The position numbers were made by a program, and so were the translations under genes. Positions 11,780 through 53,698 of a stretch of 53,700 nucleotides of DNA are shown in pieces. Numbering within the stretch: position 1 is the stretch's first letter; each line of letters begins with the position of its first letter. The DNA comes from a virus (taxonomy: Duplodnaviria > Caudoviricetes), in IMG/VR virus record IMGVR_UViG_3300027779_000038, positions 1-53,700 of that record. One strand, 5' to 3'. The notes below the pieces were generated by a model. That model was given only the letters and a program-made list of their open reading frames with translations. It was not told the DNA's origin and ran no database searches.

Positions 11780-14314
11780 ATGGCTACAACTAAAATAATA
11801 AATGATCTTATCGATTTAAATCAGACTGGTAATACTACGGCTTTAAAAGGTTGTGTTGGTACAAATGCTCAACAACCTACTACACCTACTATAAGTGTAG
11901 AATACTTAGTTGTAGGTGGCGGTGGCGGCGGCGGTGGATTTGGCCAAGCTGGTGGAGGCGGTGCTGGTGGTTTATCTACTGCCACAATTGGAGTTCCAAA
12001 TAATACAGATCTTAGTATAGTTGTAGGTCAGGGTGGTGCTGGTGGAACAGGTGCTTTACCAGCTACAGGAGCAAACGGTCAAGATTCAGGTTTTTATCAA
12101 ATCCAAGGCCAAGGAGGTGGTGGCAGTCAAGGGCATGAAGGTGGTGGTCTTCCTGGAGGATCAGGTGGTGGTAGTGCTACTTTATCTACGGGTAGTAATA
12201 CTGGTGGCGCTGGAGTTTCAGGGCAAGGTAATGCTGGGGGTACAGCGGTTGTAGCAAATTATGGTGCTCCACATTCAGGTTCAGGCGGTGGTGGTGCAGG
12301 TGCACCAGGCACAGGCGGTAATAATTTTGATGGTGATGGTGGTTCCGGATCAGATGCTGTAGCTTTAGGAATAATAACACAAGCAAATGCAGCAACTGCA
12401 GGTGTTGGAGAAACAAATGGTGCTGAGAGAAATTTTGCTGGAGGAGGCGGAGGTGGCGCTTATGGAGTTACATGCGGCGACGGTGGTGATGGAGGCGGTG
12501 GTGATGGAAATGTTGGTGGCGGAACCCACCCTGTAGCAAATAATGGGTATCCTGGAACAATAAACACCGGCGGTGGCGGTGGTGGAGTTGGATCATATGG
12601 ACCTGATACTAATATTGGCGGATCAGGCGGTTCAGGTGTAGTAATACTTAAATATGCAAATGCTGATGTAGGTAGTATTACAATAGGTGGAAGTTTGATT
12701 GGAGGATTAAGTACTGCAACAGAAACAGATAATGCTTATCCAATAGCAAACACAGCTTTTTATACATTGAATGGAAACTCTACAGATACTAGTAGCACTG
12801 GAAGTTATAATGGTGTTGATGGTAGTAGTATAAGTTATGCTTCTGGATATTTAAATCAAGGAGCTGTTTTTACTCAAGTAACAACCTCTAAAATAGTGAC
12901 ACCTAGTCCAATACCCACAACAACTGATAATGATTTTTCAATATCAATATGGTTTAAATATAATAGTGATTTTACTACAGGTTATATCTCATTATGTGGT
13001 GGTTCTGGTTGGGTTAGTGGAGCTTATCCTACAATATATTTACTTCTTAGATCCACTGGTATTAGTGGGGAATATACAATAAATGGCGCTAGAGGTTTTG
13101 GTGGAACTTTTTATTATGGCCCTCCCGGTAGTGCTTGTCCTTTAATGCATTCAGGAGAATGGTATAATTTAGCAAGCGTTTATACTTCTAGTAATAAAAC
13201 ATTTACTCATTATTTAAACGGATCAGTATTACCAATACCCCAAGCATTAATAAGTTCAGCATCAGGTTCTATAGTTACAAACTTCTGTTATGGTCAATAT
13301 GAGGATAGTGGAAGTTATAGTGCTTACGCATGGGACGGAATGATGGATCAAATTAGAGTATTTAATAATACTGCATTATCAGCTAGTCAAGTTTTATTAT
13401 TATATCAAGACACATTTAAGACTAAATTTGATGATAGTACAAATACAACTTTAGTATTTAAAGGTGGATCTGGAACTATTAATTTAATTGGTTCATCTGT
13501 ACTAGGACCTAAAGTAGGTGATTTAAGAACAAATACAGATCAGACATCAACTAATTACGCAGCAAGTGCAATGGAACATTATATGTCTACAGGGTGGAGA
13601 GTATTTGATAATTCAACCTTAGCTACTTGTAATTATCCTACTACAGCAACAGCTTTGTATCAATTAAATAGCGATGGTGGAACTACAAATAATGTTCCTG
13701 ATACATGCGGAACTTATGATGGTACAGCAACAAGTATTACATATACCACAGGATCAGGAGGTGAGTTTGGTGAGGCTGCAATTTTTAACGGAAGTACAAG
13801 TAAAATAGTAGTACCATCAGCAATCAGTATCTCTACAGATGCAACTGATTTTAATCGTTCTATGTGGATATATACAGATGCTGCATTTACTAGTTTTAGG
13901 GGTATTATTGGAACTAATGATTCTTATTATAATGCTCCCTCAGAACTTTATATTTCAAATGTTAGCGGAAATACCTATAATGCAACTTTTGTAAGAAGAT
14001 ACGGTGGGACTTATTATGGCTTTGCAAACACTAGTAATTTTACACTATTACCTACTACATTTTATCACCTATCTCTAAATTATAGGTATTCTCCACAATC
14101 AATTGATTTATACATTAATGAGTCATTGGTTAGTACAACAACCACAATTGCATTCACAGGTTCTCAATCCGTTTATGCGTATGAATGTCTAGGGCAATAT
14201 AATGGGAACGGGAGTTATTCATCATACGCTTGGGATGGTAGAATAGATCAAGTAAGATTTTTTAATTCAGCTTTAACAAGCGCTCAAGTAACCTTATTAT
14301 ATAACGAACAATAA
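11780..14314 (+). CDS. Gly-rich protein with two LamG-like domains (844 aa), virion adhesin
   Basis: VEYLVVGGGGGG...GGSGVVILKY, then two domains ending WDGMMDQIRVFN and WDGRIDQVRFFN. Confidence 0.75.
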   Translation: MATTKIINDLIDLNQTGNTTALKGCVGTNAQQPTTPTISVEYLVVGGGGGGGGFGQAGGGGAGGLSTATIGVPNNTDLSIVVGQGGAGGTGALPATGANGQDSGFYQIQGQGGGGSQGHEGGGLPGGSGGGSATLSTGSNTGGAGVSGQGNAGGTAVVANYGAPHSGSGGGGAGAPGTGGNNFDGDGGSGSDAVALGIITQANAATAGVGETNGAERNFAGGGGGGAYGVTCGDGGDGGGGDGNVGGGTHPVANNGYPGTINTGGGGGGVGSYGPDTNIGGSGGSGVVILKYANADVGSITIGGSLIGGLSTATETDNAYPIANTAFYTLNGNSTDTSSTGSYNGVDGSSISYASGYLNQGAVFTQVTTSKIVTPSPIPTTTDNDFSISIWFKYNSDFTTGYISLCGGSGWVSGAYPTIYLLLRSTGISGEYTINGARGFGGTFYYGPPGSACPLMHSGEWYNLASVYTSSNKTFTHYLNGSVLPIPQALISSASGSIVTNFCYGQYEDSGSYSAYAWDGMMDQIRVFNNTALSASQVLLLYQDTFKTKFDDSTNTTLVFKGGSGTINLIGSSVLGPKVGDLRTNTDQTSTNYAASAMEHYMSTGWRVFDNSTLATCNYPTTATALYQLNSDGGTTNNVPDTCGTYDGTATSITYTTGSGGEFGEAAIFNGSTSKIVVPSAISISTDATDFNRSMWIYTDAAFTSFRGIIGTNDSYYNAPSELYISNVSGNTYNATFVRRYGGTYYGFANTSNFTLLPTTFYHLSLNYRYSPQSIDLYINESLVSTTTTIAFTGSQSVYAYECLGQYNGNGSYSSYAWDGRIDQVRFFNSALTSAQVTLLYNEQ

Positions 14315-16158
14315 TGGCAATAACAAAAGTAATAACACCAGATCTTATAGATCTTCCTACGACAATATCAAGTGTAGAGACCAATACAGATGGAGTAGTA
14401 TTAGCTAAAGGTTCAACTAGTGGTACCGCATCTGTAGAATACCTTGTTGTAGCCGGTGGTGGTGCTGGTGGTGGTTGGTATCGAGGAGGTGGAGGTGGAG
14501 CTGGTGAATTAAAAGAAAGTACAATAGCTGTAGATATTGGTGTTCAACTTAATTTAACTGTTGGTACAGGTGGTGGTGGTGTGTTTGTAAATAGCAGCGG
14601 TGGATCTAATGGTAACAACGGAATTAATTCTACTTTTGATAGTATAACTTCTTTAGGTGGTGGCGGTGGATCGCCTGGAAACAGTGCTTCTGGAATTATT
14701 GGATCTGACGGAGGATCTGGAGGAGGATCTGGAGGTAACTGGGTTGGAACCACTGCTAGTGGAGGATCTGCTATAGGGACTGGTTCAGGAAATAATGGAG
14801 GAAATGGAGGACCTGGATCTAGTAGTTTTCAGTGCGGTGGAGGAGGTGGTGGTGCTACTCAAGTAGGATTTAATGCTGGTGCATCAAACACTGATGGATA
14901 CGGTGGGGCTGGAAAAACATATTCAAACGTAACAAGTATAACTGGCTCTGCTTTTGACATTGCTGGTGGAGGTGGTGGAGCAAACTACGATTTAGGAAAT
15001 GTAACGCAAGGTGGAACAGGTGGTGGAGCTGCTGGAGCTTCAGGAAGTTCTCCCTATGCAAATGGGCCTTCCGCAGCAAATAACACTGGAAGTGGTGGTG
15101 GTGGTGGAAATGGAGATGTACAACCAAGTAGTGGATCAGGTGGAGCCGGTGGGTCTGGTGTTGTAATTTTAAGAACGGTAAGTACAACTACAGCTACTTT
15201 TGTTAATGCTACTACATCACTAACTCAAGTTGGTGGAGGTGCGTGGACTAGTGGTGATAAAGTTTATACAATTACAGAAACCACAGGTACTGCTACTGTA
15301 ACTTTTTCATCAACAGCTTCAGGTGGTAGACCAGTAACAGGGGGTTCATATATTTTAAAAGATGGTGAATTTAGATACAACACTACAACTAAAAAAGTAG
15401 AGTATTACGATGGAGCTAGTTGGTTTACTTTAATAAGTACAACAGCGGTTCCACAAGCAGGGACAACAGGTGCTTGTAATTATCCAACTACAGCAACTGC
15501 TTTATATCAATTTGAAGATAATGTTAATGATACTTGTCCTGGAGGATTAGACGGAACTATCACGGGAAGTTTATCTTATTCTGCAAGTGGTAAATATGGT
15601 AAAGCATTATCAGGTTTTTCTGGTAACAATTTTGTTGATTTCCCAGGCATAACAGGCGTTTTAGATAATGCTACAAATACAGATTTTACATTTTCTATAT
15701 GGGTAAAATTAAATACTATACCCTCAGTATTTTATGCTGTAACTGGTAAATCAAGTCCTTTTAGTGGAAGTGAATATCAAATGTTTGATTTAATCATATT
15801 TCCAGTATCAGGTAATACAATATCAATTCATACAAGAAGAGGTTATGGGGGTTATAATTACGATCCCTCATCATATGCCGCTACATCAACAATAGTATTA
15901 GGTAATTGGTTTAATATAACTTGTGCTTATACAGCATCAACAAAAGTTAATCAAATATATATTGATGGCACATTATCAGGTAGTGATATTTTAAGTACTC
16001 AAAGTTCAGTAAGAACAATTACATCGGGATACAATATAGGTGCTTATGATTCTACTAGTACATACGCACTTGATGGTGATGTAGATCAAATAAGAATATT
16101 CCCATCTGTATTAACAAGCGCTCAAGTAACAGCTTTAGCAGAAGAAACTGCACCATAA
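14314..16158 (+). CDS. Gly-rich / LamG-like virion adhesin (614 aa)
   Basis: Same Gly-rich domain; GEFRYNTTTKKVEYYDGASW motif; LamG-like FTFSIWVK...DGDVDQIRIF. Confidence 0.75.
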   Translation: MAITKVITPDLIDLPTTISSVETNTDGVVLAKGSTSGTASVEYLVVAGGGAGGGWYRGGGGGAGELKESTIAVDIGVQLNLTVGTGGGGVFVNSSGGSNGNNGINSTFDSITSLGGGGGSPGNSASGIIGSDGGSGGGSGGNWVGTTASGGSAIGTGSGNNGGNGGPGSSSFQCGGGGGGATQVGFNAGASNTDGYGGAGKTYSNVTSITGSAFDIAGGGGGANYDLGNVTQGGTGGGAAGASGSSPYANGPSAANNTGSGGGGGNGDVQPSSGSGGAGGSGVVILRTVSTTTATFVNATTSLTQVGGGAWTSGDKVYTITETTGTATVTFSSTASGGRPVTGGSYILKDGEFRYNTTTKKVEYYDGASWFTLISTTAVPQAGTTGACNYPTTATALYQFEDNVNDTCPGGLDGTITGSLSYSASGKYGKALSGFSGNNFVDFPGITGVLDNATNTDFTFSIWVKLNTIPSVFYAVTGKSSPFSGSEYQMFDLIIFPVSGNTISIHTRRGYGGYNYDPSSYAATSTIVLGNWFNITCAYTASTKVNQIYIDGTLSGSDILSTQSSVRTITSGYNIGAYDSTSTYALDGDVDQIRIFPSVLTSAQVTALAEETAP

Positions 16159-16545: not shown

Positions 16546-18090
16546 ATGTCAGACTTAATAGTCAAGAATCTTAATTTTGGGCAAAGTGCTCAAAATCAAG
16601 TGTTTAAAGGAATTGATAAACTCACACAAGCTGTTAGCTCCACATTAGGGGCTAGCGGTAAATGTGTACTACTAGAAGATGATGCAGGTAGACCATTAAT
16701 TACAAAAGATGGGGTTACAGTTGCAAACTCAATAGTCTTATTAGATCCAGTAGAAAATATGGGGGCCACCCTTTTAAAAGAAGCAGCCCGCAAAACAGTA
16801 AATGAAGCAGGAGACGGTACCACAACCGCAACTGTATTAGCCCATGCAATTCTTAAAGAAGCATCAGAAATAGGTGTAGAAGTAAGTTCTAGGGCACTTA
16901 AAGATGGTATTAACTCAGCTACTAAGAAAGTAGTTAAGTATTTAGAGAAAAATAGCTTACCTGTTAAGGGCGATATGATAGATCATATAGCTACGATATC
17001 AACCAACAATGATCCTGAACTTGGAAAAATTATTGGTGATGCATTTAGATCTGTTGGTCAAACAGGTATAGTTATGATGGATTATTCTCCTGAAGCAGAA
17101 ACAGAAGTAGAGATAGTTGATGGGGTACAATATGATAAAGGGATGGCTAATCCTCATTTTGTAAACAATCCAGAGAAGAAATCATGTGAATTAGAAAATC
17201 CGGCAGTATTATTAATAGAATCACCGGTTGAAAACATAAGACAGATACAATCTGTTTTAGAATATGTTATTAAAAACAAAAAACCTTTACTTATTATAGC
17301 AGACGTAGAAACGCCAGTGGCCGCTACATTAGCTATGAATAAAACAAAAGGCAACATTAAAGTAAATATAATAGGTGCTCCTACTTATGGTGTAAACAAA
17401 CGAGAACAACTCGATGATTTAGCTATGTTAACCGGGGCCACAGTTATAAATGAAGATCTAGGTGATGATATGGATCTTATACAACCAGAAATGTTGGGTA
17501 CATGCTTAAGATCTACTACTACAGAAAAAGATACTGTAATACAAGTGGGTGAACCTTCAGAAGAAATCTTAAGTATTATTACCCAAATTAAAAAAGAATT
17601 ATCAGATGGGCCAATAGCCAGTAAGATAATTATGTTAGAAAAAAGACTCGCAAGACTATCAGCTAAAATAGCGATAGTAAAAGTAGGGGCTAATTCTGAT
17701 ATAGAACTTAAAGAAAAGTCCGATAGAGTAGAAGATGCTATTTGTGCTACAAAAGCAGCAATAAAAGAAGGGATTGTACCCGGTGGTGGTATTGCTCTTT
17801 TAAATGCTATGCAAAATATAAAAGCTAAAAATAAAGGTGAACAAGTATTGCTTAATGCAATTAAATCACCATTTAAAGTAATATTAGACAATGCCGGTAT
17901 TAAATTCCCGGATATATTACCAAAAATAAAAGGTGTAGGATTAAATGTAGTTACAGGTAACTCTGTAGATATGATTACAAATGGTATTATAGATCCTTTA
18001 CTTGTTACTAAAAGTGCATTAATAAATGCGGTATCTGTAGCTACAACAATATTGTCAACTGATTGTGTTATAAACAACTTAAGACAATGA
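16546..18090 (+). CDS. groEL: Phage-encoded chaperonin GroEL (Cpn60)
   Basis: ITKDGVTVA, AGDGTTTATVLA ATP-binding motif, EGIVPGGGIALL and GIIDP..VT. No GGM tail. Confidence 0.97.
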   Translation: MSDLIVKNLNFGQSAQNQVFKGIDKLTQAVSSTLGASGKCVLLEDDAGRPLITKDGVTVANSIVLLDPVENMGATLLKEAARKTVNEAGDGTTTATVLAHAILKEASEIGVEVSSRALKDGINSATKKVVKYLEKNSLPVKGDMIDHIATISTNNDPELGKIIGDAFRSVGQTGIVMMDYSPEAETEVEIVDGVQYDKGMANPHFVNNPEKKSCELENPAVLLIESPVENIRQIQSVLEYVIKNKKPLLIIADVETPVAATLAMNKTKGNIKVNIIGAPTYGVNKREQLDDLAMLTGATVINEDLGDDMDLIQPEMLGTCLRSTTTEKDTVIQVGEPSEEILSIITQIKKELSDGPIASKIIMLEKRLARLSAKIAIVKVGANSDIELKEKSDRVEDAICATKAAIKEGIVPGGGIALLNAMQNIKAKNKGEQVLLNAIKSPFKVILDNAGIKFPDILPKIKGVGLNVVTGNSVDMITNGIIDPLLVTKSALINAVSVATTILSTDCVINNLRQ

Positions 18091-40619: not shown

Positions 40620-42110
40620 ATGGCAGCATTAATAGAAGTTAAGTATTTTAACAGTTTTATTTTACGCAAAACCCTTAATGATAATACAGGAGGAGAAGCT
40701 GTGTGGAATGGATCTAGAGGTAATAATACTTATCCAAAAACAGCTGTTGCTAACGACAATAATTGGGCCATAGAAGAAGCGAGAATAAGAGGTGGATATA
40801 ATAATGTATCTACTGATTACGGCGCTAAAGCATATGTAGTTGACGATAATCCTATTGCTTCTATTAGAAAAAACTCTTTAATATATTCTGGTATATTTAA
40901 CTCAAGAACAAGCATAAATGATACTAATGTATTTTCAGTAGGTACAGACATAACAAGAAGTGTAGATCCTATAAATGGTTCAATTCAAAAATTATTTGCA
41001 GAAGATACAAATTTAATTATTTTTCAAGAGAAAAAAGTTAGTAACGCTTTAATAGATAAAGATGCTATATATACAGCTGAAGGTCAATCTTTAACAACTT
41101 CAGGCACACAAGTTATAGGTCAAGTAAGAGCTTACGCTGGTAACTTTGGTATAAGTAAAAATCCAGAAAGTTTTGCTGTATATGGTACTAGAAAATATTT
41201 TACTGATAAAGATAGAAATGCAGTACTTAGATTATCACAAGATGGAATAACAGAAATATCTAACTATGGTATGATTGATTTTTTTAGAGATCAATTTGGT
41301 AGTTTAAATGGCGGAAAATTAATAGGTGGTTGGGATATATATAACAAACAATATGTAGTTTCTATTCAACCTAAATCTACAACTCTTCCATATAAAACAT
41401 TATCATTTGACGAAATGGTGCAGGGTTGGACAAGCTTATATAGTTACAAGCCAGCAACTATGCTTAGTTTAAAAAGTAAATTTTACAGTAGTGGTCCAAC
41501 AACCAAAGAAGCTAATGATTCAGGTTCTTTATACCAACACTATGTTGCTACACAGCCTAGATCTTATTTTTATGGGGGACAATATGGTTCTAGTGTAGAA
41601 TTTGTGTTTAATCCTAAAGTTAGTATGTCTAAAGTATTTAAGACTGTTAACTATGAAGGTAGTAATGGCTGGCAAATTGATTCATTTGTTTCTGATTTTA
41701 CAGGTATTGGTTATCCTAACACAGATTTTGAATTATATCAAACCGTTAATACTCAAGATAAAACAGGTGAAAAAATACCATCTGTATTAAGTTATAATGA
41801 AGGTACATATGATAGTTCTAATCCCGCACAAGAGTTTGCAAATATAAATACAATACCTTTTACACAAAAAAATGTTACTTTAGTTCCACCTTTATTTCAT
41901 GCTGGATTTACTAGAAAAGAAAATAAATATATGGCAAACTTGGTTAACACAAGTGTTGCTGCACCTGGAGAAGTTATATTTGGTAATAAAATGACAGGTA
42001 TAAAAGGTTATTTTGCTACAGTAAAAATATCAACAGACACTTTAACTGATCCTGGAGGAATGAAAGAATTATTTGCAGCATCTTCAGATTATGTAGAATC
42101 TGCATATTAA
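40620..42110 (+). CDS. Tail muzzle/nozzle protein, C-terminal part
   Basis: IEEARIRGGYNN; LIYSGIFNSRT; GSIQKL..EDTNL; FGISKNPESFA; YFTDKDRNAVLRLSQDGITEIS; KVFKTVNYEG. Confidence 0.75.
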   Translation: MAALIEVKYFNSFILRKTLNDNTGGEAVWNGSRGNNTYPKTAVANDNNWAIEEARIRGGYNNVSTDYGAKAYVVDDNPIASIRKNSLIYSGIFNSRTSINDTNVFSVGTDITRSVDPINGSIQKLFAEDTNLIIFQEKKVSNALIDKDAIYTAEGQSLTTSGTQVIGQVRAYAGNFGISKNPESFAVYGTRKYFTDKDRNAVLRLSQDGITEISNYGMIDFFRDQFGSLNGGKLIGGWDIYNKQYVVSIQPKSTTLPYKTLSFDEMVQGWTSLYSYKPATMLSLKSKFYSSGPTTKEANDSGSLYQHYVATQPRSYFYGGQYGSSVEFVFNPKVSMSKVFKTVNYEGSNGWQIDSFVSDFTGIGYPNTDFELYQTVNTQDKTGEKIPSVLSYNEGTYDSSNPAQEFANINTIPFTQKNVTLVPPLFHAGFTRKENKYMANLVNTSVAAPGEVIFGNKMTGIKGYFATVKISTDTLTDPGGMKELFAASSDYVESAY

Positions 42111-42125
42111 ATTAAATTAAATTAA

Positions 42126-42530
42126 ATGGAATTAAAAGTCAGACAAATAAAGTCTAGTGATTGGGAGATGCTTGTTAGTTGGTGGAAAGGTCATAATTGG
42201 TCTATAATAAACAAAGATGCATTACCAGATAATGGCACCGGTGGTTTTATTGTAGAAGAAAATAATAAACCAGTTTTAGCTGGATTTTTATTTCAAACCA
42301 ACTCTAAAGGATGTTGGTTAGAATTTATAATATCTGATCCTAAATATAAAAAAGACAGAAAAAAAATAATAGAAAAACTTGTAAATACAGCGCAAGACTT
42401 GGCTATTAAACTAGGTTATAAATATATGTTGTTTATAGGTAAAAGTAATGGACTTAGAAAAGTAATGAAAGAATTAGGTTGGTTTGAAGATCCAACCCCA
42501 ACGTTTGAATTAATGAAAAAAATAAATTAA
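42126..42530 (+). CDS. GNAT-fold protein (T7 gp13 / P22 gp14-like position before the ejection proteins)
   Basis: GFIVEENNKPVLAGFL...WLEFIISDP...LVNTAQDLAIKLGYKY...MKELGW acetyltransferase-like pattern. Confidence 0.6.
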   Translation: MELKVRQIKSSDWEMLVSWWKGHNWSIINKDALPDNGTGGFIVEENNKPVLAGFLFQTNSKGCWLEFIISDPKYKKDRKKIIEKLVNTAQDLAIKLGYKYMLFIGKSNGLRKVMKELGWFEDPTPTFELMKKIN

Positions 42531-43380: not shown

Positions 43381-45120
43381 ATGGCAGAACAAAGAAAATC
43401 TAGATATCAATCTAGAAATTTACCAAGATTTGGTAATAAAAAATATGATACAAAGATTTATGAACAAGGAGGACCTGACTTATCTTCTTTCACTAGGCAA
43501 CAAGGTAGAGACTTTGCTGCTATAACATCACAAGCTGCAGCTAATACTCAAAAAGCTTTTGATAATCTTGAAGCTCAAAAAACAGCTAGGCAAGAAAAAA
43601 GTCAAGCCTACATGGATTGGACTATGGCTTTTCAAATTCAAAACACAGATGCGGTTACTCAGTTAGTATCAAAGTCTGGAGCTAATAACCCTCAATTAGC
43701 AGAAGCTGCTATGTGGCAACTTGATGGACTTAACATGGCGGGTGAAGCTGCTAAAAGAGCTGAAACACCTGAAGAGCAAAGAATTGCATTAAAACAATTA
43801 CAAGGGTTTAAAACTAGAATTTCAAGTTTAGGTGTGAATATTGATCGTCAAAATATCTCTATAAAACAATTTGCAGAAGACGCTCAAGCTAGGTTACTTA
43901 ACACACAAGGGGGATTAAACTTAAATAGTCCAAAAGGGCTAGTATACGGAAAACAAATGGCAATTACCGTTGGTATGAATCCAGGTGAAATGACTTGGTT
44001 AGTAGACGAAGATGGTGATTGGGCTGTTAGGCATGATGGTCCTTTAATGGATGAACCTACAATAACTAAAGCTTCTACTTTTTTTGAAGAAGAACCAGGT
44101 ATAATACCAGAAAGCAATAAAGCTATTCAAAAAATAATGCAAGATAGTTTAGGTTTAATAGATGATAAAGGAAGAGTTATTGATGATTTTGTTTTAGGAA
44201 ATAAATCAAAGTTGGTTTCTATAGGTCAAGGAATGATGCAAGAACAAACAGTAACTAATGAAGCTCTTATTGCTCAAAGAATGCAACCATATCTTAAGTC
44301 TTATGCTTTAAGTTATGCTTCTAATTATGATACGGCTGAAGCTTATTGGGATAGTTTACCTGAAAATATAAGAACAGATGTTAGAAATTTAATGAAAGAG
44401 CAAGGGCTTGAAGATCCAGGTGATGATTTAACCCCAGGTTTAATAACAGTTGGTTCATCTTCTTTACAAGTAAATAAAAATTCTTGGTTTGCTATGGAAA
44501 ATGCTTTATACGCACAAGCTAAAGCAATGGTACCTAAGGTTAGAAAAGGTAGAATAATGCAAGATAAAAATTACATTAAATCTGGAAGTAGTTCTAATGG
44601 CTTAGGTGGTCAAAACGATATGTTTAGTATGTTGAAAAATATAGTTGATCTACCTCCACAGCAACAATTAGACATGTTAAAACTCAATGCTAATGATTCA
44701 CAGAGTTTTAAATATAACCCACCTAGCGCTAATGATTTAAAAATAAACCCTCAAGCAAAAGGAGTTATAACTATTGAAACAAAAAGAGATGCTAACATAG
44801 ATCCACCAAATCAAGAAAAAATGATTGGATTTGAAAATTCAGTAGGATTTATAAAAGGAGGAAGTCCAGGAGATGAAGGTTATGATGAACAAATTGCAAA
44901 TGCTAACATAATGGAAGTATTTAATTTAAGTGAACGTGATAGCAAGGGTGAAACTGGTGGATTAAATGCTTGGTATAATAGAATAGCTGATCTTTATTTA
45001 GGTAATACTGCTGCTGATAGAAAAGTTAGAGCACGATTTCAAGCATTTTTAACAGATGGAAGAGGTCAAGGAAACTCAAGTGCTCCTGCTGTTGAAAGAG
45101 GATTTTTAAATGTAAATTAA
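43381..45120 (+). CDS. Internal virion / DNA-ejection protein (middle, 579 aa)
   Basis: Helical Gln/Ala-rich N-half; located between the small and giant ejection-type genes. Confidence 0.6.
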   Translation: MAEQRKSRYQSRNLPRFGNKKYDTKIYEQGGPDLSSFTRQQGRDFAAITSQAAANTQKAFDNLEAQKTARQEKSQAYMDWTMAFQIQNTDAVTQLVSKSGANNPQLAEAAMWQLDGLNMAGEAAKRAETPEEQRIALKQLQGFKTRISSLGVNIDRQNISIKQFAEDAQARLLNTQGGLNLNSPKGLVYGKQMAITVGMNPGEMTWLVDEDGDWAVRHDGPLMDEPTITKASTFFEEEPGIIPESNKAIQKIMQDSLGLIDDKGRVIDDFVLGNKSKLVSIGQGMMQEQTVTNEALIAQRMQPYLKSYALSYASNYDTAEAYWDSLPENIRTDVRNLMKEQGLEDPGDDLTPGLITVGSSSLQVNKNSWFAMENALYAQAKAMVPKVRKGRIMQDKNYIKSGSSSNGLGGQNDMFSMLKNIVDLPPQQQLDMLKLNANDSQSFKYNPPSANDLKINPQAKGVITIETKRDANIDPPNQEKMIGFENSVGFIKGGSPGDEGYDEQIANANIMEVFNLSERDSKGETGGLNAWYNRIADLYLGNTAADRKVRARFQAFLTDGRGQGNSSAPAVERGFLNVN

Positions 45121-48100
45121 TGGAAGAATTATATACTATTTTAAACGAAAGAGGGGATTATGTTGGTAGTTTTGAAGAATTTGAAAAAGATTATGCTAAA
45201 GATAATTATAAAACTCTTCACAAAAAACTAGCTCAAGCTGAATATTATACAAATCCCTATGAGGATTTTGTTCAAGATTATAAACCAGTAAAGAGCTCAA
45301 CCACAACGCCGGATACGGTTGTGGAGACAGAAGAAATCGTGTCCGATCCTTTAAAATCTTCGGATACAGAATCTGCATTAGTAAGCAATGTAATAAGCAA
45401 AGTTACTCCTAAAGGTAAAGAAGACGAAGGTATATTTGCTTCAAGTTTAAGATCTTTTATGCAGGGATTAGAAGGCGTAGAACTAGGCCAAGAGTCAGCT
45501 GAATTAATGCAAGCTTTTGAAGACGGCACTTTATCTAAAAGAGATTATCAAGAATATATAGCAGCAAATAATAACGTACAAGATAATAAAGAAATTGCTA
45601 GTATTGGTCGATATGAAAAAGCATATTCACAATATATAGCAAAAGGTGAAAATGGAACCATAGCAACATTGAAAGCTTTATGGGATAATCCAGATGCTGG
45701 GTTTCCAATGGCTATGAATTCTATTGCAACTGTTGGTAGCGCTCCTTTTCTTTCGAAAGCAGTTGGAAAAGCAGCACTTAAATATGGCGCTGCTGGTGCT
45801 ACTGCTGGAGCGGGTGTTTCTGCTGCGGCTGGTGCTTTAGGTGGGCCAGTTGGAAGTGCCGTAGCTGGTCTCACTGGTGGTGTTTCAGGTGGAATTAATG
45901 GTTTAATGTTTGGTGCTATGAAACAACTTGAAACTCAATTGTTTTTTAGTGAAGAATTAAACAATGGAATTAAAGGTGAGCTAACAGAAGAAAAAATAAG
46001 TAGGTTTTTTAGCAATAAAAAAAATGTAGAAGAAATAATAAACAACGCTGAATTAAGAGGTATTGGTGTTGCTGCTATAGAAACAATGTTTAAAATGCTA
46101 CCTGTAAAAGCGGGTGGTGCAGCATTAAAAATGATAAGTAAACGAACCGGCGCTGGTGTTGCTGGCAAGGTTGTTGCTGTTGCAGGAGGAGCTGTTGCCG
46201 CAGCTGGAACAGAAGCAGCTGTAGGTATGACCGGTGAAGCTACTGGTATGATTATGTCAGGTAAAGAGCTTGATGCTAAACAAATAATTGAAGAAGGTAT
46301 TTTAGGTCCTTACGGTAAAGTTGTTGGGGTTGCTGGTTATATAGGAAAAGTAAGAATGATGCAAGATGAAGTTAAAGCTTCTAGTTTGTTAAAAAATTCT
46401 AACTTAGATTCAAGTGCAGCTAAAGCATTTGACCCAAATCTAAAAGTAGGAGAAGCTCAAGTTGGTATATCTAAACTTAAAAATGGTCAAAAAATAGTAG
46501 ACTACGAGGTAGATAGGATGGTTAATAGAAGTGACATATCAGAACAAGAAGGCAAAGATATAAAACAAAATTTTAGAGATGTACAGGGTGGCTCAAACAG
46601 ATTAAAAAGTTTAAAACTTGACAATGCGGCAGAAGCAGAGGCTATAAATAAATTAAGAATTATTAATAAGCTTAAGCAGGATATAAAAGAAATAGATAAT
46701 AAGGCTTTATCTGCACAAAAACAAGCACAATTAGATACATTAAATGAAGAATTAAACACAAGTGATAGTGAATTATTTAATGTTATTAAAAAAGACGCCG
46801 CACAAAAAGTAGAAAAAGATGTAAGTTTTGTAAAAAAAGCAGCAGAAGCATTAAAATTTAAAGTTGTAGATAATTTATCAACTACAGAAATATTACAAAA
46901 ATTTGGAAAAAAAGAAGCTGCCGCTAATGGATTTTTTAGAGATGGCACTATATATATAAACAAAGAAGTTGCTGCTGAAACAAGAGCCGTAACTGTTGGT
47001 AGTCACGAATTATTGCACGGTATATTAGCTAATGCAGCTAAAATAGATGAAAAAATAATTGAACAGTTTAAAAGTAAACTAACTGAAGATCAAATTAAGT
47101 TAGTTGATAAAAAACTTACAGATAATTATGAAGCTGATTATATAAAAGATAATCCTGATGAGTTTATAACACAATTTTCTGATCTTATAGCTGAAGATAA
47201 AATTAAATACAATGATACTTTAGGAACAATGTTATTAGATGTAGTAACTCCTATACTTAGAGCAGCTGGTTTTAAAAATATTAAGTTTGATAGTGGTGAA
47301 CAAATATATGATTTCATGCGAGAATACAGTAAAAGCATGAAGTCAGGTAATTTAAGTGGTGCTATAATAAAAGCAGTACCAGGTGGTGTTAAAATAAAAG
47401 ATACAAAAACTACTGAATCAAGATCTAAACGCTTTGATACTAAAGAAATATTAAGTACTAATACTGATACTATAAATGAATTAGCTACTGAAAATAAAAC
47501 TACTCCATTTAAACAAAACTCTACACAAGAAAAAGATTTATTAAGACAATATACTAATGTTGCTTTAAAAGCTTTAGGTTATAGAAAAGGAGCAGGTACT
47601 ATAGCGCCGCAAGAGGCGGTAAGCTTTGTTAATTCTAAGTTTAAAGGCATAATGAATAGGTTTAATCCTAAAGAATCTAAGTTTTCTACGTGGGTTACTA
47701 GTAATATTACTCCTAAACGAATGGAATTCTATGACAGTCAAATAGGTGATGCCGCTGTAACAACTAGCATAGATGATGAAAGAGCAGGTCAAATAGCGGA
47801 TATACCTACTGAAACTAAAACAAATAAAAAAAGAGATGTTAAGCCTACTACAAATCCTTTAAAATTATTTGGTTCAGATGATAAAGCTAGGGAGTCTTTT
47901 ATAAAAAATACTATAGATAAAATAAAAGAGCTAGGTTCATTAGATTTAATTAACTCTGTATTTGGCTTAGGTTTGCCTTCAAATATAGATAACTTAACAT
48001 ATAAAACATTAAAAACTTTAGACGAGCAGGGTATTGCAGATCTAACTGGTATACCTGTTAATAAAATATTTCAAAAAGCAGATAATTTAAATCAAGACGC

Positions 48101-51100
48101 TATAAACGCTTTGATGTATATTAATAAAAATGCTCAAGCAATATTAAACATGCTTCCTGATAGTCACACTGAAATAAAAAGTGTTGTATCAAAATCAAAT
48201 CCTAACAAAATGGTTAAGATTGGTGGAGAATCAACCGGTGTGCCTCAAAATGTTCTTAATAAATTTTATGATAAGGGCAAAAGAGTTGGTAATAACACAC
48301 AGTGGACAAAAAAACCAAACTTAACTGTTGAAAAGCTTAGGGATGAATTAGGTATGGAGGGCACTATTAAAGACCCTACATTTAAAGCTAGAACAAATAC
48401 ATCACAATCATTAAAAGGCATACTAGAATTAGTTGGTAGAGGTATGACTAATACTGTTGCTAGAAATTATTTAGAGTCTATAGGATATAACCCATTGGTT
48501 ATAAACAATATAGCAGAGGGTAAAAATCCTTCTATGTTTAGTACCACTAAAGTAAAAGAAATAAGTGGTATAAATATATTTCAGCAAGCTGCTTTAGAAT
48601 CTGCTAAAGATGATTTTAATAGTTTTAATACTTCATCTTGGAAACCTTTTTATGATAAAATGGGTGTTAGTCCTCTTGATCCTAGTAGTTGGGCTGATAA
48701 AATGGAAATGGTAGATTTCTTTCAAAAGGTTTTACCACAATATTTACCACAAGAAATAATAGCATTACTTGGACCTACTATGACAAATGGTCCTGCTAGT
48801 TATTACAAAGCTAATAGTGATAAATTTAATGAAGCTGCAAAAGCAAATCCTAAAAAATACCCTACACAAATATTAAACTCTAATGAAGAGTTAGTAAATA
48901 ATGACAAACTAAGAGCTGCTAGTAAAGAAAAGTTTGTATTAGAAGCACTAGGCATAAAAAATATTGATGAGACTGTAGATTATAAAAAAGCAGACTGGAG
49001 CAAAATAAGTAATAGTGAGTCTTTCTTTTTTAAAGATTCTAAACAGGCGGGCAATGAAGGAGCAAAATATCAAGCTAAAAAAGATCATAAAAGTCCAACT
49101 GTGTCTAAACAACAACTAGCAGACATGAAAGTTATGTTTTATAAGCAAGGTTTTACTTCTGGTAAAGGAAACAAAAGAACCGTACAGAATAAGTTTTTAG
49201 AAACATTATGGCAAAGCAACGAGCTTAAAGCGCAAAACGCAGCTAAGTTAAGAGGTTTAAAGGCTATGTTTGAAGTGTTTGAACAAATGATGAAAGATGA
49301 TTCTAAAAATGCTAAATATATCATTGGTATTTTATCTAAAACTAGTGGTCATCAAAATGGTTTTGTTAGAGTTTCAGCTCCTATGAAGTTTATAGCTAAA
49401 AATATACTTGGTGTAGAGATAGTAGAAGAACACACACTACCAGCTTCTTTAGCTGCTAAATATTTATTTCAACAAGCCGTTAGTGGAACAGTTAATAAAA
49501 ACTTCAAAGGTATAGAAAGAAATTACATGCAAGGTATTTTATCTAAACTTGATGATAATAAATTAAAAGGTATAGGTATTGATGGAAAACCTTTTAATTA
49601 CATAAAAAGTACCCCAGAAGGTTTTACTTTAAATGATAATATATGGGCTAGGTATTTTAATCTTAATGTAGCTACTATTGAAAACGGATTTGGTATTGAT
49701 CCTAATAATTTAGAATTAGAAACAGGTAAAACTGTTGCAGAAACTTTTGGTGTAAATAATGCTGGTGCGGATATTGCAGGTATAAAAAGTGTTGAAAGAC
49801 TTAAAGCGGAATACAATAAAAAAATAGGTCCTGCTATTGTACCTCAAGAAGTACAAGAAGAATCGTTATATAGTAAGTCACCTAAATTTTCTACTAGTGA
49901 AATATTAAATAATTTTAATTTAATTGATAAGTTTAATAATAAACAAGAATCAAATTTTACTAATTCATTGAGTCTTGATAAAGATTTTAACGATATAATT
50001 GAAAATAAAACTGGTATTGCATCAGAAAAAACATACTCTAAAGTTAAAGCAGAAGTAGTAGGCTCTAGTAAAGGTAAGTTTGATTGGTTTATACCACCAT
50101 CAGCTGAAGATTTTGTAGGTTTATTATATAAAACACTAGGTAAGGGTAAAATAGGTGATAGTCAAATGGCTTGGTATAAAGCTCATTTATTAAATCCATT
50201 TTCAAGAGCAATGGATAATATATCAAGATCTAGAGTTGCGCTTGGTAATGATTTTAAAGCTCTTAAAAATAAATTAAATGTTGTACCTAAAACATTAAAG
50301 AAAAAATTACCTGGTGAAAATTTTACACAAGAACAAGCTATTAGAGTTTACATATGGAATAAGCAAGGTACAAATATTCCAGGTATGTCTGAAACAGATA
50401 TAAAAGAACTTAAAAATTTTATAGAAAATAATAATGAATTAAGATCTTTTGCAGATGAACTAATGCAACTACAAAAAGGTGATCAATATGCAAAACCTAG
50501 CGAAAGTTGGTTAGCTGGTAATATTACTACAGACTTAATGGAAGGTATTAATACTATTAAAAGAGCTAAGTTTTTAGAGCAATGGCAACAAAACGTTGAT
50601 AAAATATTTACCGAAGCTAATTTAAACAAACTAGAGGCTGCTTATGGTAAGTCTTATCGTAATGCTTTAGAAAGTAGTTTACAAAGAATGAAAACTGGTA
50701 AAAACAGATCATTTGGCGGTGATACTTTAACAGGTAGAGTTACAGACTGGTTAACAAACTCTATTGGTGCTATTATGTTTTTTAACACTAGATCAGCTGT
50801 ACTTCAAACTATATCAGCAATTAACTTTATAAACTTTGGAGATAATAATATATATGCAGCTGGTAAAGCTTTTGCTAATCAAAAACAATATTGGTCTGAT
50901 TTTAAGAAATTATTTAACTCAGACTTTTTAGTTGAAAGACGTGATGGTTTAAAACTTAACGTAAACGAAGCTGATATAGCCGAAATGGCTAAAAAAGGTG
51001 GACCAAAAGGGGTTATTGCTGGTTTACTTAGATTAGGATTTTTACCTACACAAATAGCAGATAGTTTTGCTATAGCTTCAGGAGGTTCTACTTTTTATAG

Positions 51101-51956
51101 AAACAGATTGGAAGCTTTAGAAAAACAAGGTATGTCTAAAAAAGATGCTGAAACTCAGGCTTTTCAAGATTTTAGAGAGACCGCAGAAGAATCTCAGCAG
51201 TCTAGTAGACCTGATAGAATTAGTCAACAACAAGCTGGTCCGCTAGGGCGTATTATACTAGCCTTTGCTAACACTCCAGCTCAGTATGCTAGATTAATAA
51301 AAAAAGCTGCTATTGATCTTAAGAATCGGCGAGGTGATGCTAAAACAAACATATCTAAAATAATATACTATGGTATTGCACAGAATTTAATATTTAATGC
51401 TATGCAGCAAGCTTTGTTTGCTTTAGCTTTTGAAGATGAAGATGAAGATGAAAAAGAAAAAAGAGCTGTTAACGTAGCTAACGGTATGGCTGATAGTGTT
51501 CTACGTGGTACAGGACTTGCTGGTGCTGTTGTTTCAGTGTTAAAAAATGTAGCTTTAAGATTAAATCAAGAATCAGGTAAAAAATCGCCTAAGTATCAAG
51601 ATGTGTTACAAAAAGAGATTTTACAAATATCACCACCTATATCTTCTAAAGTAGGTAAATTAAGATCAGCGGGTCGGTCATTCTCATGGAATAAAAAAGA
51701 TATGATGACAAAAGGTTGGTCTATTGAAAATCCAGCATATCTTGCTGCCGGTCAAATAATAGCCGCAACAACTAACGTTCCTTTAGATAGAGTAATTAAG
51801 AAAATAAATAATATTAAAAATTCAAGTGATTCAAAACTACAGGTTTGGCAAAGAATAGCATCTTTAGCTGGTTGGTCTGAGTGGGAGCTTGGTATACAAA
51901 AATCTAAACAAAGAAAAACTAAAATAAAAAAATATAAAGTTAAAAAAAGAGTTTAA
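45120..51956 (+). CDS. Giant multidomain internal virion / ejection protein (2278 aa)
   Basis: Gly/Ala hydrophobic segments at about aa 200-400; zincin HELLH (47004-47018); sigma-like segment; EEHTLP domain; conserved C-terminal helical region (MFFNTRSAVLQTIS, QQSSRPDRISQQQ, LAFANTPAQY). Confidence 0.8.
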   Translation: MEELYTILNERGDYVGSFEEFEKDYAKDNYKTLHKKLAQAEYYTNPYEDFVQDYKPVKSSTTTPDTVVETEEIVSDPLKSSDTESALVSNVISKVTPKGKEDEGIFASSLRSFMQGLEGVELGQESAELMQAFEDGTLSKRDYQEYIAANNNVQDNKEIASIGRYEKAYSQYIAKGENGTIATLKALWDNPDAGFPMAMNSIATVGSAPFLSKAVGKAALKYGAAGATAGAGVSAAAGALGGPVGSAVAGLTGGVSGGINGLMFGAMKQLETQLFFSEELNNGIKGELTEEKISRFFSNKKNVEEIINNAELRGIGVAAIETMFKMLPVKAGGAALKMISKRTGAGVAGKVVAVAGGAVAAAGTEAAVGMTGEATGMIMSGKELDAKQIIEEGILGPYGKVVGVAGYIGKVRMMQDEVKASSLLKNSNLDSSAAKAFDPNLKVGEAQVGISKLKNGQKIVDYEVDRMVNRSDISEQEGKDIKQNFRDVQGGSNRLKSLKLDNAAEAEAINKLRIINKLKQDIKEIDNKALSAQKQAQLDTLNEELNTSDSELFNVIKKDAAQKVEKDVSFVKKAAEALKFKVVDNLSTTEILQKFGKKEAAANGFFRDGTIYINKEVAAETRAVTVGSHELLHGILANAAKIDEKIIEQFKSKLTEDQIKLVDKKLTDNYEADYIKDNPDEFITQFSDLIAEDKIKYNDTLGTMLLDVVTPILRAAGFKNIKFDSGEQIYDFMREYSKSMKSGNLSGAIIKAVPGGVKIKDTKTTESRSKRFDTKEILSTNTDTINELATENKTTPFKQNSTQEKDLLRQYTNVALKALGYRKGAGTIAPQEAVSFVNSKFKGIMNRFNPKESKFSTWVTSNITPKRMEFYDSQIGDAAVTTSIDDERAGQIADIPTETKTNKKRDVKPTTNPLKLFGSDDKARESFIKNTIDKIKELGSLDLINSVFGLGLPSNIDNLTYKTLKTLDEQGIADLTGIPVNKIFQKADNLNQDAINALMYINKNAQAILNMLPDSHTEIKSVVSKSNPNKMVKIGGESTGVPQNVLNKFYDKGKRVGNNTQWTKKPNLTVEKLRDELGMEGTIKDPTFKARTNTSQSLKGILELVGRGMTNTVARNYLESIGYNPLVINNIAEGKNPSMFSTTKVKEISGINIFQQAALESAKDDFNSFNTSSWKPFYDKMGVSPLDPSSWADKMEMVDFFQKVLPQYLPQEIIALLGPTMTNGPASYYKANSDKFNEAAKANPKKYPTQILNSNEELVNNDKLRAASKEKFVLEALGIKNIDETVDYKKADWSKISNSESFFFKDSKQAGNEGAKYQAKKDHKSPTVSKQQLADMKVMFYKQGFTSGKGNKRTVQNKFLETLWQSNELKAQNAAKLRGLKAMFEVFEQMMKDDSKNAKYIIGILSKTSGHQNGFVRVSAPMKFIAKNILGVEIVEEHTLPASLAAKYLFQQAVSGTVNKNFKGIERNYMQGILSKLDDNKLKGIGIDGKPFNYIKSTPEGFTLNDNIWARYFNLNVATIENGFGIDPNNLELETGKTVAETFGVNNAGADIAGIKSVERLKAEYNKKIGPAIVPQEVQEESLYSKSPKFSTSEILNNFNLIDKFNNKQESNFTNSLSLDKDFNDIIENKTGIASEKTYSKVKAEVVGSSKGKFDWFIPPSAEDFVGLLYKTLGKGKIGDSQMAWYKAHLLNPFSRAMDNISRSRVALGNDFKALKNKLNVVPKTLKKKLPGENFTQEQAIRVYIWNKQGTNIPGMSETDIKELKNFIENNNELRSFADELMQLQKGDQYAKPSESWLAGNITTDLMEGINTIKRAKFLEQWQQNVDKIFTEANLNKLEAAYGKSYRNALESSLQRMKTGKNRSFGGDTLTGRVTDWLTNSIGAIMFFNTRSAVLQTISAINFINFGDNNIYAAGKAFANQKQYWSDFKKLFNSDFLVERRDGLKLNVNEADIAEMAKKGGPKGVIAGLLRLGFLPTQIADSFAIASGGSTFYRNRLEALEKQGMSKKDAETQAFQDFRETAEESQQSSRPDRISQQQAGPLGRIILAFANTPAQYARLIKKAAIDLKNRRGDAKTNISKIIYYGIAQNLIFNAMQQALFALAFEDEDEDEKEKRAVNVANGMADSVLRGTGLAGAVVSVLKNVALRLNQESGKKSPKYQDVLQKEILQISPPISSKVGKLRSAGRSFSWNKKDMMTKGWSIENPAYLAAGQIIAATTNVPLDRVIKKINNIKNSSDSKLQVWQRIASLAGWSEWELGIQKSKQRKTKIKKYKVKKRV
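45288..45345 (+). promoter_or_regulatory. Putative -1 programmed ribosomal frameshift signal (A_AAG, 7-nt spacer, H-type pseudoknot)
   Basis: Stem 1 CCACAAC(45301-07)/GTTGTGG(45318-24); stem 2 CGGATACG(45310-17)/CGTGTCCG(45338-45); the -1 frame stays open for 39 codons to TAA 45410-12. Confidence 0.7.
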
Positions 51957-52823: not shown

Positions 52824-52860
52824 TGAAGGGAGATCATAACGGTCTCCCTTCATTATTTTT
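52824..52860 (+). terminator. Terminator between the convergent structural and nrdA transcription units
   Basis: TGAAGGGAGATC-ataac-GGTCTCCCTTCA 12-bp hairpin followed by TTATTTTT. Confidence 0.8.
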
Positions 52861-53698
52861 ACCCGTCACAGGACAAACACTCTTCGTCCATCGCAGCAGC
52901 CGCTATGTCACCTCTAAGGACAGATTCTGTCCTCATATAGTATAAGGTCTTAATACCTTTTTTCCATGCATCTAAGTGTACCTTATTGATCCATTTAGGT
53001 GTAGCCTCTGAAGGAAAAGCTAGGTTTAAACTAACAGACTGATCTATATACTGTTGCCTAATTCCTGCTTGATTTACTAATTCTAATTGATTTATCTCTT
53101 TAAATGTTTTAAATACATCTTTAGCTGGGACATCATTAGTAAATGTAAGATCATTTAGTTCTTTTATACCTTGAACTGATCCACCATCTCTTAATATCTT
53201 ATCCCATATTTTTTCAGTATTTAATTTATGTTTACGTAAAAACTTAACTAAAGTAGGATTCTTTCTAATAAAAGTACCTTTAGCTGATTGCTCTGTAAAT
53301 ACATTAGCTGCCCAAGGCTCTATACCGGGTGATATATTACCAGACAACTTACTGTTACTAACTGTAGGTGCTATAGCTCTTAAATGAGTGTTACGCATAC
53401 CAGTGCCTGTACACCACAGCGGTTCACCGTAAGTATCACCTAGGTTTCTACTAGCTCTATCAGACTCTATCTTGATCTGACTAAATATTCTACGCGTTTC
53501 ATACTGTGACAATAGCCCTTCAAATGGTATACCTTTTTCTTGTAAGTATGTGTGCCATCCTAAAACTCCCAAGCCTACAGCTCTACCTTTTTGAGCAGAT
53601 CTAACAGCATTTTCAAATCCCCGTAATCCTTTAGCTCTATGTATAAACTCTTCCATAACTCCATCTAAAAACCATATGCTATAATAAATAAGATTAGT
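52859..53698 (-). CDS. nrdA: Ribonucleotide reductase large subunit, class I, C-terminal part (5' end lies outside the window)
   Basis: RAVGLGVLG, MRNTHLRAIAPTVSNS, GIEP, RQQYIDQSVSLNL, GIKTLYYMR and C-terminal CLSCDG; frame open to the window edge. Confidence 0.93.
   Translation of the reverse strand, partial: TNLIYYSIWFLDGVMEEFIHRAKGLRGFENAVRSAQKGRAVGLGVLGWHTYLQEKGIPFEGLLSQYETRRIFSQIKIESDRASRNLGDTYGEPLWCTGTGMRNTHLRAIAPTVSNSKLSGNISPGIEPWAANVFTEQSAKGTFIRKNPTLVKFLRKHKLNTEKIWDKILRDGGSVQGIKELNDLTFTNDVPAKDVFKTFKEINQLELVNQAGIRQQYIDQSVSLNLAFPSEATPKWINKVHLDAWKKGIKTLYYMRTESVLRGDIAAAAMDEECLSCDG

Follow-up and report, generated by a model that had tools for sequence, protein, structure and literature searches.

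The window analysed here is the whole of a 53,700-nucleotide stretch of DNA, IMG/VR record IMGVR_UViG_3300027779_000038, which is linear (53.7 kb), has a GC content of about 33% and a CheckV completeness of 83%, and represents the larger part of the genome of a distantly crass-like, uncultured marine podophage. Its + strand carries a giant open reading frame (ORF) in the gene position used by crassviruses for virion "cargo" proteins, and the middle of the encoded protein holds a module resembling domain 2 of the sigma-70 factors. The giant gene and its parts are given below (aa, amino acid residues; pLDDT, predicted local distance difference test).

45120..51956, + strand: giant ORF (P0002), multidomain protein of 2,278 aa in the crassvirus "cargo" slot (ORF list and translation)
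45717..46319, + strand: Gly/Ala-rich hydrophobic stretch, about aa 200-400 (read from the translation)
46842..47429, + strand: zincin-like metallopeptidase module, aa 575-770, with HELLH at aa 629-633 and E681 (motif)
47472..47750, + strand: sigma-factor domain-2-like four-helix module, aa 785-877, 93 residues (AlphaFold2, VIA, Foldseek, profiles and Atlas)
47751..47864, + strand: TTSIDD motif followed by a Thr/Glu/Lys/Pro-rich linker, aa 878-915 (pLDDT below 50 at model residues 94-130)
47865..48539, + strand: "domain X", about aa 916-1140, 225 residues, compact alpha/beta domain of unknown fold (AlphaFold2)
49317..49799, + strand: moderately conserved region, aa 1400-1560, with invariant E1437 and near-invariant H1438 in VEEHTLPAS (alignment A2 and conservation blocks)
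49917..51953, + strand: C-terminal core, aa 1600-2278, with several hydrophobic helices (conservation)
51432-51452, + strand: acidic EDEDEDE run within the C-terminal core, aa 2105-2111 (homologues are acidic here too)

Along the protein, a hydrophobic N-terminus is followed by the HExxH...E zincin-like module, the sigma-2-like domain, a disordered linker, the domain of unknown fold and the conserved C-terminal core. The whole giant protein matched zero Pfam families at cut-off and zero PHROGs, a phmmer search against the Protein Data Bank (PDB) gave nothing at E ≤ 1, and tblastn against 50,697 phage records found nothing with the whole protein and, with residues 575-1150 alone, nothing even at E ≤ 1. 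Pfam and PHROG matches of the giant and its homologues to VBS_C3G9, DUF6934 (in one clade) and phrog_32588 (in the N-terminal part) were sub-threshold or irrelevant and were discarded. Relatives were retrieved by the C-terminal core, which yielded at least 584 IMG/VR contigs, and 80 loci were retained, referred to below as the 80 giants. With residues 720-1120 as query, 60 homologues were found, each of 1,452-2,781 aa.

The C-terminal core is the most conserved and defining part of the giant family, with 53-79% mean column identity per 50-residue block, and was aligned over most of its length in 78 of the 80 giants. It appears helical and hydrophobic by eye, and its nearest clusters in the language-model Atlas are unnamed viral proteins; an LPD39 cluster (28% of members) and LPD38 clusters are weak leads only. 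The domains in between vary among the giants: a hidden Markov model (HMM) of the zincin module matches 52 of 80, all 52 with HExxH, the sigma-2-like module occurs in no fewer than 53, and 31 carry domain X. The order of the modules is fixed. The sigma-2-like module starts a median of 11 residues past the zincin module (38 giants), and the following domain starts a median of 35 residues past the sigma-2-like module (21 giants). The HExxH...E zincin signature, made up of H629, E630, H633 and E681, is present without exception in the 31 aligned sequences; the module lacks a Pfam match and, because a PDB sequence match is also absent, it is called zincin by motif only. The Gly/Ala-rich stretch is possibly membrane-active, as far as its composition goes.

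The original prediction, made from the letters of this DNA, had placed a sigma-70-like region 2 and a possible region 4 helix-turn-helix at 47535-48070, and the peptides it quoted are found in frame +1 of that interval exactly as written, as residues 806-983 of the giant ORF. Residues 785-1015 with a 17-sequence alignment served as AlphaFold2 input for a first model. Model residues 1-90 form four helices with block means of pLDDT of 84-96, the linker is predicted to be disordered, and the remainder of the model past the linker is poorly predicted. In a comparison with 48,161 PDB chains by VIA-align, a method independent of Foldseek, the model of aa 785-877 matched sigma domain 2, and Staphylococcus aureus SigB (8x6g_H) ranked first with a Z of 8.0 and a root-mean-square deviation (rmsd) of 3.0 over 86 residues. 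It was followed by SigK, 7d7d_F, CnrH, SigC, BldN, sigma-32, SigW, AlgU and sigma-E region 2. By entry title, sigma factors fill 17 of the 19 leading rows, and the remaining two are 7d7d_F, from a T4 late-transcription complex, and 9n9q_C, from an RNA-guided transcription complex; all of these matches cover model residues 1 to about 90. Among the top 20 rows of Foldseek, 17 were likewise sigma factors or RNA polymerase-sigma complexes, every one at E ≥ 0.17. The fold call leans on this one-family ranking and on its agreement with the sequence evidence, not on Z alone. On these grounds, the embedded domain very probably has the sigma-2 fold, with helices corresponding to regions 1.2, 2.1, 2.2 and 2.3/2.4.

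Profile searches point in the same direction. Profile A1, run against the PDB, gave one match at E ≤ 10, which is SigB (E 0.09) in the register of regions 1.2-2.2. The wider profile A3 gave 27 matches, 17 of them sigma factors (best E 0.025), and its alignments set the conserved F-[DN]-P of the module on the FD/FN-P turn of region 2.2. Against region 1.2-2.4 pieces of six E. coli sigmas, hhalign returned 56% and E 1.1e-4 over 61 columns for the module type of the window, and 68% and E 4.7e-5 for a variant type described below. The corresponding scores were 28.4 (window) and 31.3 (variant), against 12.1 and 12.5 for the best of 60 column shuffles, and controls with reversed alignments scored 7.1 and 9.0, respectively. 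In the Atlas, counting named clusters only, 24 of 30 matches bear Sigma70_r2 (score 0.95), and those closest to the module consist of short viral proteins, about 100-120 aa long, that hold sigma-2 alone.

The hhalign register with sigma-70 equates E832 with D403, N838 with N409, F848 with F419, F855-S856-T857 with F427-S428-T429, W858 with Y430, and I863 with I435. D403, Q406, E407 and N409 of sigma-70 are taken here to be core-binding residues of region 2.2; the module has the acidic E832 and N838 at the first and last of these positions, and Ser and Phe at Q406 and E407. Y425, Y430, W433, W434 and Q437 are the melting and -10-reading residues of regions 2.3 and 2.4, and among these five positions the module has an aromatic residue at Y430 alone (W858), with Lys, Ser, Asn and Pro at the other four. 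In sigma-70, Y430 and the F-S-T residues contact flipped promoter bases. A profile-level similarity to region 2 in the right register is present at moderate strength, and the module probably shares common ancestry with the sigma-70 factors.

The pattern QY..VAL.ALGY...G....A.SFV..F..I...[FY].P....FST[WHYFL]V..NI.PK...Y is kept in the 45 homologues aligned over the module, so that the F.P...KFSTW motif, on whose conservation the region 2 proposal had been made to depend, is conserved, and TTS[IL]DD follows the module in most homologues. Run against 1.84 billion proteins, profile A3 matched 549 cluster representatives at E ≤ 0.001, of which 243 had E ≤ 1e-10. Most of the 150 matches listed are proteins exceeding 1,000 aa, the longest having 3,636 aa, and carry the module mid-chain; the shorter ones may be fragments. 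A jackhmmer search started from the module of the window finds 14 of the 80 giants. In many other giants the same place is occupied by a variant type, for example FDRQLLTDEIETGKRGILDLIKEYKPESGVPLAAYINKFLPARAIEAS, which keeps D.IE.G..G[IL], resembles DLIQEGNIGL and is nearer to the classical region 2.2 than the window type. A search started from the variant finds 42 giants, three of which are common to both searches, and together these make up the combined count of at least 53. That count is a lower bound, because eight of nine further giants with the downstream domain and without an HMM match show, by eye, a [FY]-[DN]-P...aromatic variant.

The supposed region 4 fared differently. Residues 905-1150, modelled by AlphaFold2 with a 23-sequence alignment, form a single compact alpha/beta domain (pLDDT 82; predicted TM-score 0.80), domain X, and LTYKTLKTLDEQGIADLTGIPVNKI, the stretch proposed as region 4, makes up short helices inside it. 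Searches with domain X found no sigma factor: the best Foldseek match in the PDB had E 0.28, a wide VIA comparison reached a best Z of 4.5 with nothing at ≥5 and no sigma in 50 rows, and a PDB profile search also gave no sigma. The single BFVD match (E 3.4e-4, TMq 0.64) falls on a segment of a large protein that comes from an uncultured virus, not on a sigma factor. The claim of a region 4 helix-turn-helix is therefore not supported, since LTYKTLKTLDEQGIADLTGIPVNKI lies inside a confidently modelled alpha/beta domain without a sigma match; a small sub-motif resembling a helix-turn-helix may be present in that stretch. Foldseek alignments of the first model that extended over about 237 columns of whole sigmas had rmsd values of 12-24 Å and were not used for region 4, because the rmsd is high and the low-confidence half of the model carries them.

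The original prediction had also seen no polymerase motif in the giant protein, and this observation stands: the sole DxDxD is DEDED at residue 2106, in the acidic low-complexity run, and does not represent a polymerase motif. The stricter pattern D-[FYWLIVM]-D-x-D is found nowhere in the long ORFs of the window and has a single match, in a 117-codon frame. The crAss-like virion RNA polymerase has a catalytic DFDxD motif in a double-psi beta-barrel, and the model of phi14:2 gp66 is deposited in the PDB as 6VR4, as described in the preprint of Drobysheva et al. A 15-sequence alignment of the full-length giant family, compared by hhalign with phi14:2 gp65, gp66 and gp67, gave probabilities of at most 0.9% (0.9% for gp66), and the phmmer search of the PDB had given nothing at E ≤ 1. 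By these comparisons, no link between the giant protein and the virion RNA polymerase of crAss-like phages can be detected.

Five complete relatives (G001-G005; CheckV 99-100%, 64-71 kb) were searched for polymerase families. PF00623 is found in none of the five, with 14 of 14 control genomes positive, and PF00940 is also found in none of the five, a family for which no control genome was able to match. Each of the five instead has one ordinary stand-alone sigma gene. In four genomes it is one uninterrupted ORF of 253-256 codons; the gene of G004 is split, with its matches to regions 2 and 4 in adjacent frames of 95 and 164 codons. Sigma70_r2 and Sigma70_r4 matches fall on the same gene in all five, with Sigma70_r2 above the cut-off in four, and PF04545 matches nothing in the five genomes other than the stand-alone sigma ORF. 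The four translated ORFs, each a sigma-70-family factor of about 255 aa with a region 4, carry the canonical DLIQEGNAGL and lie as follows.

L089, 692-1456, + strand: stand-alone sigma-70-family factor
L090, 438-1196, - strand: stand-alone sigma-70-family factor
L091, 413-1177, - strand: stand-alone sigma-70-family factor
L092, 371-1138, - strand: stand-alone sigma-70-family factor

A conserved ORF of 208-211 codons, whose C-terminus is helix-turn-helix-like, precedes the stand-alone sigma in the complete relatives. Neither this ORF nor the sigma gene is in the window, and both presumably lie in the missing 17% of the genome. Because the two polymerase families are absent from the five relatives and these encode a sigma of their own, the phages appear to depend on the host core RNA polymerase throughout. 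A recent origin of the module by copying of the phage-encoded sigma was rejected, as hhalign gave probabilities of 0.2% for the window type and 2.4% for the variant type. The same comparison with the full-length sigma of the phage group found no region 4 alignment.

The gene position bears on the function of the giant protein. As had been suggested, the giant gene is in the equivalent slot, downstream of a crAss_MUZ_C gene, where crassviruses encode cargo proteins and the virion RNA polymerase. The muzzle-like gene of the window and the giants found in the same slot of two related phages are listed here.

40620..42110, + strand: muzzle-like tail protein of the window (PF25729 crAss_MUZ_C, E 6.1e-12; phrog_14478)
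L093, 28852-39936, + strand: Elemovirus gp18, 3,694 aa, same slot, annotated as structural protein
L094, 741-12320, - strand: giant protein of MW202828, 3,859 aa, same slot, two HExxH motifs, unrelated to the giant of the window

Mass spectrometry of phicrAss001 virions detected the cargo and polymerase-associated proteins that are encoded after its muzzle gene, and extrusion through the tail has been proposed for them (PMC10172136). By analogy of gene position, the giant protein is presumably a cargo protein. Elemovirus, a Flavobacterium phage of 60 kb, has a gp18 that shares the zincin module with the giant of the window (E 1.4e-12) and does not share the core. A weak match of the sigma-2-like module in this gp18 (domain E 0.018) was unconvincing by eye. 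The slot seems to be a hot spot for module swapping.

When set beside sigma-70 domain 2 as seen in SigB (8x6g_H), and the extracytoplasmic-function factors SigK and CnrH, the module shares the four-helix fold over about 86-90 residues (Z 6-8), the F-[DN]-P turn followed by the F-S-T-aromatic sequence that starts the long region 2.3/2.4 helix, and the acidic residue and Asn at the D403 and N409 positions. It differs in lying mid-chain in a protein of 2,278 aa, whereas domain 2 forms the N-terminal half of a factor of 20-70 kDa, in having no sigma-3 and no recognised sigma-4, in falling under all Pfam thresholds and in not keeping W433, W434, Q437, Q406 and E407. The closest functional model, by analogy, is the late sigma gp55 of T4. 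The chain 7d7d_F, which belongs to a T4 late-transcription complex by entry title and reached a Z of 7.3 in VIA-align, is taken to be gp55. Like the module, gp55 is a sigma-2-only, sigma-4-less protein, and it lets the host core polymerase start at a -10-like element. It differs in being a free protein of 185 aa that is made after infection and works with gp33 and the sliding clamp, whereas the module is within a presumed virion protein and has no known partners.

The virion polymerases of crAss-like phages (phi14:2 gp66) and N4-like phages resemble the giant in being giant proteins encoded at the end of the structural block and presumed to be ejected to jump-start early transcription. Those of N4-like phages also resemble it in the zincin-like peptidase module, to which they are always fused (Iyer et al. 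2017, PMC5512222). Unlike both, the giant has no polymerase domain and no DFDxD, and the logic proposed here is reversed: a specificity factor would be brought and the host enzyme borrowed. The giant further fits the pattern of the polyvalent proteins of phages and conjugative elements (Iyer, Burroughs, Anand, de Souza and Aravind 2017), judging by its very large multidomain architecture with a zincin HExxH...E hub and variable effector modules, and it shares with them a predicted role at entry. In that work, the zincin-like peptidase is named as the commonest hub and predicted to process the polypeptide, and jump-starting transcription is one of the themes named (PMC5512222). The giant differs from the polyvalent proteins in that no LPD Pfam domain scores in it, LPD39 and LPD38 being the weak Atlas leads mentioned above. 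Judging by its gene position, it would be delivered into the recipient cell with the DNA.

Taken together, these results suggest that the module could be a virion-delivered, gp55-like minimal sigma that engages the host core RNA polymerase at the start of infection, a reading that is put forward tentatively and at slightly less than an even chance. From the gene position and the comparisons above, we infer packaging, ejection, processing, polymerase binding and promoter use as follows. Like crassvirus cargo, the giant protein would be carried in the virion, be ejected together with the DNA or before it, and possibly be cleaved by its own peptidase module. The sigma-2-like module would then dock on the beta-prime clamp helices of the host core RNA polymerase, and by a gp55-type action without sigma-4 the host polymerase could start on the entering DNA before any phage gene is expressed. 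The stand-alone sigma of the complete relatives would take over later. A role on the host core polymerase at entry is proposed because the phage group apparently lacks a polymerase and yet uses a sigma. For the parts of this reading, the chances that the module acts on the host RNA polymerase in any way are about even, and its action as a positive initiation factor is doubtful. It is conceivable, if rather unlikely, that a lineage of marine Flavobacteriia phages swapped the injected polymerase known from crass-like and N4-like phages for an injected minimal sigma that is freed by the adjacent zincin peptidase.

Several results weigh against this reading. Pfam Sigma70_r2 (PF04542) matches nothing at E ≤ 10 in the six-frame translation of the window and none of the 17 members at E ≤ 10, and the same model does match the E. 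coli sigmas and the stand-alone sigma of the relatives. Sequence E-values against the PDB are never significant (best 0.025), Foldseek gave zero rows at E ≤ 0.001 with the sigma-2-like model, and a VIA Z of 8 is middling for a helical bundle, according to the method's own caution. The sigma-70 residues Q406, E407, Y425, W433, W434 and Q437 are replaced by S, F, K, S, N and P, respectively. Sigma-4 was not found, either by the structure and profile searches with domain X or by PF04545 in the five complete relatives, and the hhalign comparison does not bring the module near the sigma that the phage group itself encodes. No cultured relative with the module was found by tblastn among the 50,697 phage records. 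Finally, closely related phages have quite different giants in the same slot, so that the lineage as a whole can do without the module. Thus the region 2 claim is borne out in its fold and conserved motif by AlphaFold2, VIA and the profiles, and is not borne out by Pfam Sigma70_r2 and at several key residues. For these last two reasons, the module is described as sigma-2-like and not filed as a member of the family. A complex prediction for the module (A3) with residues 200-420 of Flavobacterium johnsoniae beta-prime, a piece cut by guess from a stand-in host species, scored 0.01, which speaks neither for nor against binding.

The same fold evidence would be expected if the module were a sigma competitor or decoy that binds the clamp helices or another sigma-2 partner and cannot melt promoters. 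Such a protein would displace or block the host sigma and shut off host transcription on entry, and the phage promoters would be served later by the stand-alone sigma. The loss of the melting or wedge residues W433 and W434 and of the -10 reader Q437 would suit this role, as would the missing sigma-4 and the separate, complete sigma of the relatives. However, the aromatic residue at the Y430 position and F-S-T, which contact promoter bases in sigma-70, would be needless for a pure decoy and are the best-conserved residues of the module, and a decoy would face competition from the phage's own sigma as well. Since no part of the module is better kept than the F-S-T-aromatic motif, a gp55-like initiation factor is preferred over a competitor, which is considered unlikely.

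Equally improbable is a domain derived from sigma-2 that has a job away from the polymerase, such as gripping single-stranded or end DNA of the entering genome or serving as a packing or adaptor module in the cargo. Such a domain would fit with the window type having other residues at several core-binding positions of region 2.2, with the constant embedding of the module in a giant, flanked by the peptidase module and a domain of unknown fold, and with the unrelated giants that suffice in the slot of related phages. It would leave unexplained why the variant of the sister phages keeps the region 2.2-like D.IE.G..G[IL], and it sits poorly with the small viral sigma-2-only proteins that form the nearest language-model clusters and with the apparent dependence of these phages on the host polymerase.

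The module could also be the specificity part of an unrecognised virion RNA polymerase, in which the C-terminal 680 residues or E1437/H1438 would be catalytic and sigma-2 would act in cis. The gene is located where crassviruses encode their virion polymerase and the C-terminal core is very strongly conserved, but no DxDxD-type motif is present save the low-complexity DEDED, the hhalign values against phi14:2 gp66, gp65 and gp67 do not exceed 0.9%, PF00623 and PF00940 are absent from all five complete relatives, and the core looks helical and hydrophobic by eye. In addition, a sigma of their own makes sense only with the host core polymerase, and a hidden polymerase is very unlikely. A chance resemblance of a generic four-helix bundle to sigma-2 would account for PDB sequence E-values that are all above 0.01, for a Z of 8 within the range reported for unrelated helical bundles and for the silence of Pfam, but it is the least probable explanation of all, since VIA, the Foldseek ranking, the HMM and hhalign profiles and the language-model features converge on the same family and register and the shuffled and reversed controls score far lower.

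A phage without a polymerase relies on the host enzyme for its first genes, and the known solutions are early promoters that are strong and resemble those of the host, polymerases that are injected (N4, crAss-like phages), and injected enzymes such as T4 Alt that modify the host polymerase. A particle-borne module of sigma type would, if true, be a fourth strategy and the first virion-delivered sigma, and the sigma-70 family would gain a new setting, the middle of chains of 2,000-3,600 residues. Hundreds of uncultured marine phage lineages carry the module, so the mechanism could be widespread in the ocean. If the module is instead a decoy, it would represent a new kind of host shut-off factor. 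The module also offers a first functional handle on the giants in this slot, which are unannotated by Pfam and PHROG. A literature search found no paper in which a virion protein, cargo protein or polyvalent protein has a sigma-like domain. The word "sigma" has 0 occurrences in the main text of Iyer et al. 2017 (PMC5512222), a paper whose supplementary domain lists might bear on the point, and a jumbo-phage survey, as far as its treatment of sigma factors goes, covers free phage sigma factors only. What appears to be new is where a sigma-70-type domain 2 is found: its architectural setting has changed, and presumably its functional setting too.

The giant gene is the last large gene of the structural block of the window. 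On the + strand, tail-fibre-like genes and a GroEL gene are followed by the large terminase, the portal, and capsid and virion proteins, then by a 1,665-aa tail protein, the protein with the crassvirus muzzle C-terminal domain and a small GNAT, and finally by a 277-codon ORF, a 579-codon ORF, the giant ORF and an M15 peptidase. No tRNA genes were found in the 53.7-kb window. The features outside the giant gene are listed below.

9018-11771, 11780-14314 and 14314-16158, + strand: three consecutive paralogous genes with a shared N-terminal Gly_rich_2 domain (phrog_2295)
16546-18090, + strand: GroEL-type chaperonin (PF00118, E 2.1e-62)
42126..42530, + strand: small GNAT-like acetyltransferase (PF00583, E 8.7e-4, 20.0 bits against a cut-off of 20.7)
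52859-53656, - strand: C-terminal part of a ribonucleotide reductase large subunit, running past the record end

The terminase of the window matches 87 phage records, whose hosts, where named, are Flavobacterium (68), Cellulophaga (15), Tenacibaculum (2) and Maribacter (1). All named hosts are Flavobacteriia genera, which agrees with the flavobacterial host guessed earlier and makes that guess reasonable, though indirect. The terminase of MW202828 is 64% identical to that of the window. BLASTP of the neighbouring ORFs against the structural proteins of phi14:2 was uninformative.

The GNAT-like gene sits between the muzzle-like gene and the giant gene, and MW202828 has an annotated acetyltransferase at the same position; the protein could be another virion-carried host-modifying enzyme. 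The ribonucleotide reductase fragment marks the start of an oppositely oriented replication or early block. Elemovirus likewise has GroEL, plus GroES. The three Gly_rich_2 paralogues differ at their C-termini, with a DUF7483 tail-fibre-like domain in one, Laminin_G_3 in another and none in the third, and the trio looks like a cassette of alternative receptor-binding proteins.

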